Below, in pieces: positions 43,284-43,887 of a DNA stretch of 64,000 nt. The translations under genes and the position numbers were made by a program. The stretch covers positions 10,130-74,129 of the forward strand of contig CAZTZL010000003.1 of the NCBI GenBank assembly GCA_964617625.1. The letters run 5' to 3'. Positions within the stretch are counted from its first letter, which is position 1. The number at the start of each line of letters is the position of its first letter. The notes under the pieces are model-generated. The model saw only the letters and a program-made list of their open reading frames with translations, was not told the origin of the DNA and did not search any database. This DNA is from an uncultured bacterium (GTDB lineage Bacteria > Zhuqueibacterota > QNDG01 > DSAB01).

Positions 43284-43514
43284 CAACGGCTCTATTGTAC
43301 AAAGTTATCGACAAAAAGTCAAGTTTTTTTGGAAAAAACAACATAAAAAATTTGCATGGATTGACTTATAAATAAATTGCGGGCTTATTGGTGACATCTC
43401 CTATTCCACATTGTCCACAATAAACGCTCCGCTCATGAAATGCGGAATTGCTGGCACAGGAAAACAATACTCGATCATGTCATATAATAAATCCCATAAA
43501 ACATAGGATTTTTT

Positions 43515-43811
43515 TATGTGGCGCCTCCCAGTGCGCGAAGCCGATCGAGGACCGATCAGTCATGATCGGTTCGAAGATCAATCGAACGACCAGTTCGATT
43601 CTGGCATTAAATACCAATGGTACAATAATAAAACCCGCAGTCTTAAAAATCCTACGGGCTTATTGGTGGCGCCTCCCAGTGCGCGAAGCCGATCGAGGAC
43701 CGATCAGTCATGATCGGTTCGAAGATCAATCGAACGACCAGTTCGATTCTGGCATTAAATACCAATGGTACAATAATAAAACCCGCAGTCTTAAAAATCC
43801 TACGGGCTTAT
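43515..43811. repeat. two tandem direct repeats (period about 148 bp), each beginning with a copy of the 3' acceptor/T-arm end of the adjacent tRNA-Phe; a further degenerate junction copy at about 43381-43395
   Basis: The unit runs from tggtggcgcctcccag through gcgcgaagccgatcgaggaccgatcagtcatgatcggttcgaagatcaatcgaacgaccagttcgattctggcattaaataccaatggtacaataataaaacccgcagtcttaaaaatcctacgggc. It repeats at 43515 and 43661, then continues into the intact tRNA at 43811. gggcttattggtg recurs at 43383. Confidence 0.8.
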
Positions 43812-43887
43812 TGGTGGCGCCTCCCAGAATCGAACTGGGGACACACGGATTTTCAGTCCGTTGCTCTACCGACTGAGCTAAAGCGCC
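43812..43887 (-). tRNA. tRNA-Phe (anticodon GAA), CCA encoded
   Basis: The minus-strand sequence GGCGCTTTAGCTCAGTCGGTAGAGCAACGGACTGAAAATCCGTGTGTCCCCAGTTCGATTCTGGGAGGCGCCACCA folds as a cloverleaf: 7-bp acceptor, D-loop AGTCGGTAGA, anticodon stem ACGGA/TCCGT, loop CTGAAAA, T-arm CCAGTTCGATTCTGG. Confidence 0.9.

Follow-up and report, generated by a model that had tools for sequence, protein, structure and literature searches.

What does an array of tandem repeats, each opening with a copy of the end of a tRNA gene, record about the history of the DNA around it? We addressed this question at a tRNA-Phe(GAA) gene, which according to ARAGORN is the single tRNA in the 64-kb window (the whole stretch of 64,000 nucleotides analysed here, to which all positions refer unless a relative is named). 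A preliminary description had proposed that the repeats behind this gene are the footprint of site-specific integration, and that the ~43 kb of polysaccharide-utilisation (CAZyme/T9SS) DNA on the same side of the tRNA may be of island origin. Our results favour the first proposal in a miniature form, to which we give a rough probability of 0.55: the array is probably a site-specific recombination scar at the tRNA-Phe 3' end that was later amplified in place. The second proposal fared poorly.

Layout of the tandem array behind tRNA-Phe

The features of the locus are as follows, listed in the direction of the tRNA, with the means of recognition in brackets.

43905-43933, reverse strand: sigma-70-like promoter for tRNA-Phe, TTGACT-17-TATATT plus TG (consensus scan, consensus match only)
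43812-43887, reverse strand: intact tRNA-Phe(GAA) (ARAGORN; Rfam RF00005 at 71.8 bits)
43680-43827, reverse strand: unit 1, tRNA-proximal, 148 nt (repeat searches)
43772-43807, second copy 43624-43659, reverse strand: unit-borne intrinsic terminator, GCCCGTAG..CTGCGGG then UUUUAUUAUU (fold)
43738-43766, second copy 43590-43618, reverse strand: inverted copy of the tRNA 3' end, 29 nt (repeat search, similarity p = 0.0035)
43680-43737, second copy 43532-43589, reverse strand: 58-nt palindrome-rich segment (repeat and motif searches)
43532-43679, reverse strand: unit 2, 100% identical to unit 1 (repeat searches)
43484-43531, reverse strand: displaced native tRNA-Phe 3' end, consisting of the 14-nt core without encoded CCA and the native terminator (alignment to the related species L087, fold)
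43402-43483, reverse strand: spacer with one small hairpin at 43429-43445 (sequence comparison)
43380-43401, reverse strand: decayed fourth junction, GGAGATGTCACCAATAAGCCCG (repeat search and junction alignment)
43294-43322, reverse strand: promoter-like site of the LacI gene (consensus scan)
42235-43263, reverse strand: LacI-family regulator, the first gene of the polysaccharide-utilisation cluster, outside the array (Pfam)

The promoter predicted just upstream of tRNA-Phe is plausible by consensus. The last 16 nt of the gene, CTGGGAGGCGCCACCA with the encoded CCA, double as the start of unit 1, and each unit opens with these same 16 nt of the tRNA. Read in the direction of the tRNA, the gene is followed by two 100% identical 148-nt units and then by a third 14-nt core. 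TRF and the repeat search gave a period of 148 bp and 2.1 copies at 100% identity (43518-43665 and 43666-43813, plus 14 nt into the tRNA); together with ARAGORN and Rfam they bear out the earlier statement that the tRNA-Phe 3' end is followed by tandem 148-bp repeats.

The 14-nt core (CTGGGAGGCGCCAC, the third copy running from 43531 to 43518 in tRNA sense) spans the 3' half of the T-stem through C74. Searched as GTGGCGCCTCCCAG, it has exactly three exact occurrences in the window, at 43518, 43666 and 43814, all in direct orientation and with 134 bp between successive cores; with up to two mismatches allowed, four matches were obtained against 0.17 expected by chance. The tRNA end plus its flank had been described as recurring two more times, and this holds for the 14-nt core with its three copies. 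The full 24-mer GGGCTTATTGGTGGCGCCTCCCAG, by contrast, is present only twice, at 43656 and 43804, and the leftmost core copy (43518-43531) shares nothing but the 14 nt with the other copies and has a different flank of its own.

A two-unit array of the same kind, with one G-to-A SNP in the distal unit, was found in an independent JGI metagenome contig, Ga0315535_1012939 (L001), and the array is therefore not an assembly artefact. The unit is known from these two near-identical instances, the window and L001.

Anatomy of the 148-nt unit

Unit 1 consists, in order, of the core, CCA, a terminator, an inverted copy of the tRNA end and the palindrome-rich segment. Directly behind the CCA of each unit a strong intrinsic terminator is predicted, the hairpin of which has a predicted fold of -15.2 kcal/mol (z = -4.3), and the unit as a whole folds better than shuffles on either strand (z = -3.5 and -3.9). 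The inverted copy agrees with the tRNA 3' end throughout the T-arm (15/15) and ACCAAT (6/6) and departs from it solely in the 8-nt acceptor strand, where CATTAAAT replaces GAGGCGCC; what had been noted as an inverted T-arm-like sequence in each unit repeats 15 nt of the tRNA T-arm exactly, in antisense.

Both of the hairpins previously ascribed to the repeat were found in each unit. The 58-nt segment holds the palindromes TTCGA-N7-TCGAA and ACCGATCA-N4-TGATCGGT, together with three TCGAAC-type motifs, three GATCGG-type motifs and four GATC sites, all above shuffle levels. We read the palindromes and the repeated TCGAAC and GATCGG motifs as putative leftover protein-binding sites. A LacI operator was considered for the 20-bp palindrome and rejected, with no related site elsewhere in the LacI cluster.

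The unit matched no known RNA family: no Rfam family was detected at E <= 10 in 42800-44400, RtT (RF00391) included. Neither ARAGORN at its default settings nor the Rfam tRNA model called a tRNA within the unit; relaxed ARAGORN on the units gave no tRNA and one spurious tmRNA-like call at ps80, and junk calls only at ps70. An opposite-strand pseudo-tRNA of 85 nt, ending ...T-arm-CATTAAAT-ACCA, was also tried and failed both Rfam and relaxed ARAGORN. The ORFs crossing the array had no Pfam or PHROG match, and they pass through the two units in different frames, since a length of 148 is not divisible by 3; a small protein encoded by the unit was rejected on these two grounds.

Displaced native 3' end and decayed fourth junction

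The third core of the window and its flank were aligned with a displaced core and terminator in the related species L087, and 36 of the 50 aligned positions were identical. The stems of this terminator differ between the window and L087, yet both fold. As the third core and its flank are orthologous to the displaced end of L087, they represent the native 3' end of tRNA-Phe, which lies 3' of the two units in the window.

The spacer that follows (43402-43483) had no similarity to the unit or to L087. Beyond the spacer, the degenerate fourth junction reported earlier near 43383 was confirmed at 43380-43401: it matches the core plus a unit-type flank at 19 of 22 positions, with all three mismatches being transitions, and the repeat search gave 76% identity over 33 nt. 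This junction carries the unit-type flank, yet it is located beyond the native flank. The order of events was therefore not simple, and at least three events are needed.

The same site in related genomes

In L087, the OmpA-like neighbour is 72% identical to that of the window, the OmpA-HD-DAGK gene order is the same and tRNA-Phe is found at the same position, with a difference of 1 nt between the two tRNA genes and ~85% identity over 150 nt of intergenic DNA on the 5' side. On the 3' side, L087 has one insert of ~102 nt, behind which come the tRNA end in slightly decayed form (TGGGAGGCGTCACC) and the terminator. Comparison of the DNA between the tRNA and the displaced end, 2 x 134 nt in the window and ~102 nt in L087, revealed no significant similarity. 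Since neutral DNA is alignable at such a distance, we are dealing with two different occupants of the site, as opposed to a single sequence that has diverged.

A third flank was seen in L086, a 99%-identical strain, in which TCGTAAA stands immediately after ...GGCGCCAC. The contig stops right after this new flank, as expected if another element or repeat follows. The occupancy of the site thus varies among relatives with conserved flanks (the insert of L087 and the flank of L086). In all seven junctions from the three genomes, the core begins at the T-loop/T-stem border on the left and ends after ...GCCAC on the right. Taken together, the junction edges, L087 and L086 support a precise recombination site in the tRNA-Phe 3' end, and in this respect the proposed footprint of site-specific integration stood up well. 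The nearest GTDB relatives found through synteny of the HD protein reach no more than 70-74% identity, and none of them has a tRNA at the site.

Three further observations were made in these genomes. The tRNA-Phe of L086 (L086:1-81) has the T-stem variant CCACAG instead of CCCCAG, giving a mismatch. Within the ~85%-identical tRNA-Phe/OmpA intergenic region, L087 has an insertion of ~100 nt relative to the window (L087:555-655) with a T-arm-like GGGCGAGGGTTCAATTCCCCGCCC and a second GC-rich hairpin, which from its sequence may be a small mobile repeat. Finally, in a 74%-identity relative without the tRNA, a GC-rich, structured-looking non-coding stretch lies upstream of the OmpA homologue (L004:500-640).

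Probable insertion into the tRNA end followed by tandem duplication

The crossover made by tyrosine integrases in tRNA genes falls in the anticodon loop, in the T loop or at the T-stem/acceptor junction, with the integrative element supplying a replacement tRNA 3' end (PMC4383910; 10.1101/2020.11.02.365908). The repeat described here, running from the T-loop/T-stem border to the 3' end, belongs to the T-stem/junction class of these crossovers, and core edges shared at all junctions are the signature by which tRNA-gene integrative elements are mapped.

We therefore favour a model in which the insertion of a gene-free segment of 134 bp separated the tRNA body from its original 3' end. The insert would have supplied its own copy of the last 14-16 nt of the tRNA, an encoded CCA and a strong intrinsic terminator, so that the functional tRNA-Phe would now be completed by insert-borne sequence, with the original end displaced to 43484-43531. 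Because the insert is flanked by direct repeats of 14-16 nt, tandem duplication is possible, and slipped or unequal recombination between these repeats may have given the two identical tandem copies; an integrase acting on the same direct repeats would be an alternative route. The observed layout of 2.1 copies, DR-X-DR-X-DR ending in a bare core, is the product expected of duplication between flanking repeats. The decayed junction at 43380-43401 could be the record of an older event of the same kind.

The insert itself is most likely the last remnant, two att arms, of an integrative element, and nothing in it looks active today. It is our inference that the first insertion was the work of an integrase, that the two arms represent att arms and that the duplication took one of the two routes above. 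As stated in the preliminary description, no integrase is present: the large ORFs scanned for domains gave no integrase or transposase domain in the window, and there was no integrase between the repeats. A larger element carrying these arms (ending ...CTTCGCGCA / CAATAAGCCCG...) was sought in viral, phage and plasmid collections and none was found; likewise, nothing relevant was obtained with the L086 flank and the L087 insert in viral contigs, or with the L087 and L024 regions in phages (L024 is an Elusimicrobium genome described below).

These negative results count against the scar model, and further points do so too. A typical attP measures ~250 bp (PMC4383910), more than the 148 bp of the unit. 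To account for so small a remnant in two species, one has to assume that extreme decay occurred repeatedly or that the element is genuinely small. In addition, the exact inverted T-arm copy in each unit is not predicted by simple integration, the decayed fourth junction with its unit-type flank complicates the order of events, and two near-identical instances give the unit itself no comparative power.

If the scar model is right, tRNA 3' ends in an uncultured FCB-type lineage serve as precise recombination sites, and a remnant of such recombination that measures only ~130 bp can still undergo amplification.

A possible local origin without a recombinase

An array of this kind might also have arisen purely locally, either from a decayed tandem copy of tRNA-Phe plus spacer or by slippage or template switching at the terminator hairpin, in each case followed by unequal crossing-over. 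Tandem duplication between short repeats can proceed without an integrase, the inverted T-arm is separated from the tRNA by the terminator in a way that resembles the product of a fold-back template switch, and tRNA duplications coexist with such repeats at E. coli tyrT/tyrV. However, no similarity between the unit and the part of the tRNA that precedes the core was seen on the sense strand (p = 0.59), and a decayed tandem tRNA-Phe copy was ruled out on this result. The edge of the similarity is also sharp, going from 14/14 identity to none, unlike the outcome of gradual decay. With regard to template switching, the inverted copy is not symmetric about the hairpin, and slippage leaves unaccounted for both the unrelated insert of L087 with the same breakpoints and the third flank of L086. 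We therefore consider a purely local origin unlikely.

A possible functional RNA module

A second alternative, which we hold to be quite unlikely, is that the units form a functional tRNA-linked non-coding module of the RtT kind, transcribed with or near the tRNA and processed via the tRNA-like 3' end. The E. coli tyrT/tyrV region served as a control (K-12, NC_000913.3 1286709-1287622). It contains a 178-bp unit in 3.1 copies behind the tRNA-Tyr genes, each unit ending in the last 17-19 nt of the tRNA, and the RtT model RF00391 detected four units at 133-138 bits. The overall architecture of the window, inverted tRNA end included, is that of this control, and the better-than-shuffled folding of the window unit given above (z = -3.5 and -3.9) would also suit a structured RNA. 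Furthermore, the tRNA and the insert of L087 are not separated by any clear terminator, and the 3'-end copy there is closed onto by a stem GUGAUG/CGUCAC.

On the other side, neither RF00391 nor any other Rfam model matched the window at E <= 10. In the RtT consensus, the inverted tRNA-end copy (GGGGAAGGAU) pairs with the 3'-end copy. The inverted copy of the window carries CATTAAAT in place of the acceptor strand GAGGCGCC and therefore cannot pair in this way: with the acceptor complement lacking, only 4 bp are possible, the RtT closing stem cannot form and the predicted fold has local hairpins only. The closing structure of L087 is no better than shuffles (z = -1.3). With a terminator predicted right after the CCA, read-through from the tRNA promoter would be expected to be low, and the unrelated occupants in two species argue against a conserved RNA.

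The adjacent polysaccharide-utilisation DNA

The island proposed in the preliminary description would make the array the attL side of a large element comprising the ~43 kb of CAZyme/T9SS DNA, with the integrase and attR beyond the window start. Some of the comparative evidence would fit such an island. The tRNA-Phe 3' side is a synteny breakpoint, and the DNA found there varies by species, with the LacI cluster in the window and a different sequence in L087; relatives at ~64-74% identity have no tRNA at all at the site. Moreover, homology with the upstream regions of the relatives' LacI genes starts near 43357, at a distance of ~25 nt from the fourth, decayed junction. It is thus conceivable that the tRNA-Phe 3' side underwent a rearrangement at an att-type site in the past.

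Nevertheless, an island reaching across the 43 kb has in our view a slim chance. Within the 43 kb there was no integrase or transposase among the large ORFs scanned, and a search with the core gave no second tRNA fragment and hence no second att copy. A GC discontinuity across 43.9 kb had been suggested as a check, and neither a GC nor a skew step was seen at the tRNA. The native tRNA flank stands between the units and the cluster. The LacI-TonB-receptor cluster is common to many related species (LacI 81-87% identical), as expected of vertical inheritance, and in every relative with readable DNA it is conserved in other contexts with no tRNA adjoining. The finding leaves the reading of the neighbouring polysaccharide-utilisation genes unchanged.

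Several features of this DNA were recorded in passing. A 103-aa ORF at 1095-1406 (reverse strand) matches only the N-terminal part of GH42 beta-galactosidase and probably represents a truncated pseudogene that borders the CAZyme cluster on its left; small ORFs at 283-1007 had no Pfam match. Two large ORFs in the polysaccharide-utilisation/PorV-like cluster, of 1188 and 753 aa (35768-39334 and 19299-21560, both on the reverse strand), have no Pfam domain. GC content falls to 0.38-0.41 at 24000-30000 (GH97 and GH29/CBM genes) and at 1-4000, as against ~0.45-0.51 elsewhere; these low-GC stretches are the sole compositional anomalies and are unrelated to the tRNA.

Searches for dispersed copies

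Dispersal of the unit was assessed in the window and in sequence collections. The 64-kb window contains no other copy of the unit, even with 3 mismatches allowed. A stem-anchored, loop-tolerant pattern of the internal unit, run against 241 million metagenome records, returned the same locus only. Five different patterns gave no true match in viral contigs, where the 16-mer matches were due to chance and lay in coding or GC-rich contexts, and blastn against phages and plasmids gave none. A genome-wide MITE-like repeat had been named beforehand as one finding that would refute the integration reading, and nothing of the sort was seen in the window and metagenome scans. A MITE-like dispersed repeat lying by chance beside tRNA-Phe is thus scarcely credible, despite the small size, the hairpins and the tandem copies, given that no further copy was found in any of these collections, that on our reading of the unit ends there are no terminal inverted repeats, and that a 14-nt duplication is atypical for a transposon.

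Comparison with known systems

The miniature scar favoured above was compared with four known kinds of element. Tyrosine-integrase islands in tRNA genes, such as those collected by Islander and the Dehalococcoides ssrA islands, are alike in having an intact tDNA with direct repeats of its 3' end, a T-stem/junction crossover, an insert that restores the gene and several stacked junctions (PMC4383910; PMC3146451). Islander rejects candidates that are shorter than 2 kb or have no integrase, and its islands range over 2-200 kb (PMC4383910). The array has the intact tDNA and a same-orientation 3' fragment reaching the gene end; it has no integrase between the two and, at 134 bp, lies far below this length range. 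Thus, whereas the known islands are 2-200 kb long and carry an integrase, the insert of the window is 134 bp, geneless and identically duplicated.

CIMEs, which are decayed ICEs or IMEs keeping attL and attR, are alike in leaving a gene-poor remnant between att-type repeats at a tRNA 3' end, and tandem accretion is a known outcome for them (PMC5704250). Judged at the sequence level only, the array fits this description, with an exact core on either side and no genes; no parent ICE or IME was found in the collections searched. The CIMEs described so far extend over kilobases, and their descent from a known ICE or IME is recognisable. In the same superphylum, NBU1 and NBU2 of Bacteroides are mobilizable elements of ~10 kb with integrase and mobilisation genes, which integrate into tRNA 3' ends via a common core of 13-14 bp. 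No homologue was found here.

A scan of all 25 tRNAs in the DNA compared gave one further case besides the contigs of the tRNA-Phe locus. In an Elusimicrobium MAG (CACXER010000074.1; L024:4651-4990), a tRNA-Cys is followed 198 nt downstream by a direct repeat of ~60 nt with 4 mismatches, which consists of the last 12 nt of the tRNA and the terminator, and in the insert the 3' half of tRNA-Cys, reaching from the anticodon loop through CCA, recurs in inverted and decayed form (p = 0.001). The layout is like that of the window, although phylum and tRNA are different ones, and it counts in favour of the scar model. Sub-kilobase scars of this kind may be common and systematically overlooked by island finders, which filter for at least 2 kb and an integrase.

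A bolder proposal, speculative and rather improbable in our judgement, is that the 134-bp insert, far from being dead debris, is a non-autonomous integrative element reduced to a minimum, which has nothing but att sites and lives as a parasite on a tRNA-Phe-specific integrase, and that the tyrT, Elusimicrobium tRNA-Cys and tRNA-Phe layouts form one overlooked class. If so, the att-only element would relate to integrative elements as a MITE does to a transposon, being excised, re-integrated and multiplied in tandem in trans, and island-finding pipelines would discard the whole class through their length and integrase filters.

The closest known architecture is that of the 178-bp repeats of E. 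coli tyrT/tyrV, although the window units are not members of the RtT family. In both cases the tRNA is followed by head-to-tail units of ~150-180 bp (~3 in E. coli), which contain the last 14-19 nt of the tRNA including CCA, an inverted partial tRNA 3' end and GC-rich hairpins. The two differ in that there is no sequence or covariance-model similarity between them, the tRNAs are Phe and Tyr respectively, and the phyla are not the same. In the window, an intrinsic terminator lies directly behind the tRNA, whereas the E. coli tyrT units are transcribed up to a rho-dependent terminator. With respect to the features that define RtT, the window thus has tandem units with the tRNA 3' end and lacks a match to the covariance model as well as the closing stem. 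Every unit of the tyrT/tyrV repeats also has the tRNA 3' end in inverted form, and these repeats might themselves be old integration scars; the function of the RtT (rttR/tpr) locus is still described as unclear (10.1101/2024.07.17.603846).

Taken together, the array adds one more case to a known kind of feature and stands out by its unusually small form. Its value lies in the small size, in the clean comparative evidence and in the resemblance to the tyrT repeats, and it links this pattern to the long-known 178-bp repeats of tyrT and to the layout in Elusimicrobium.
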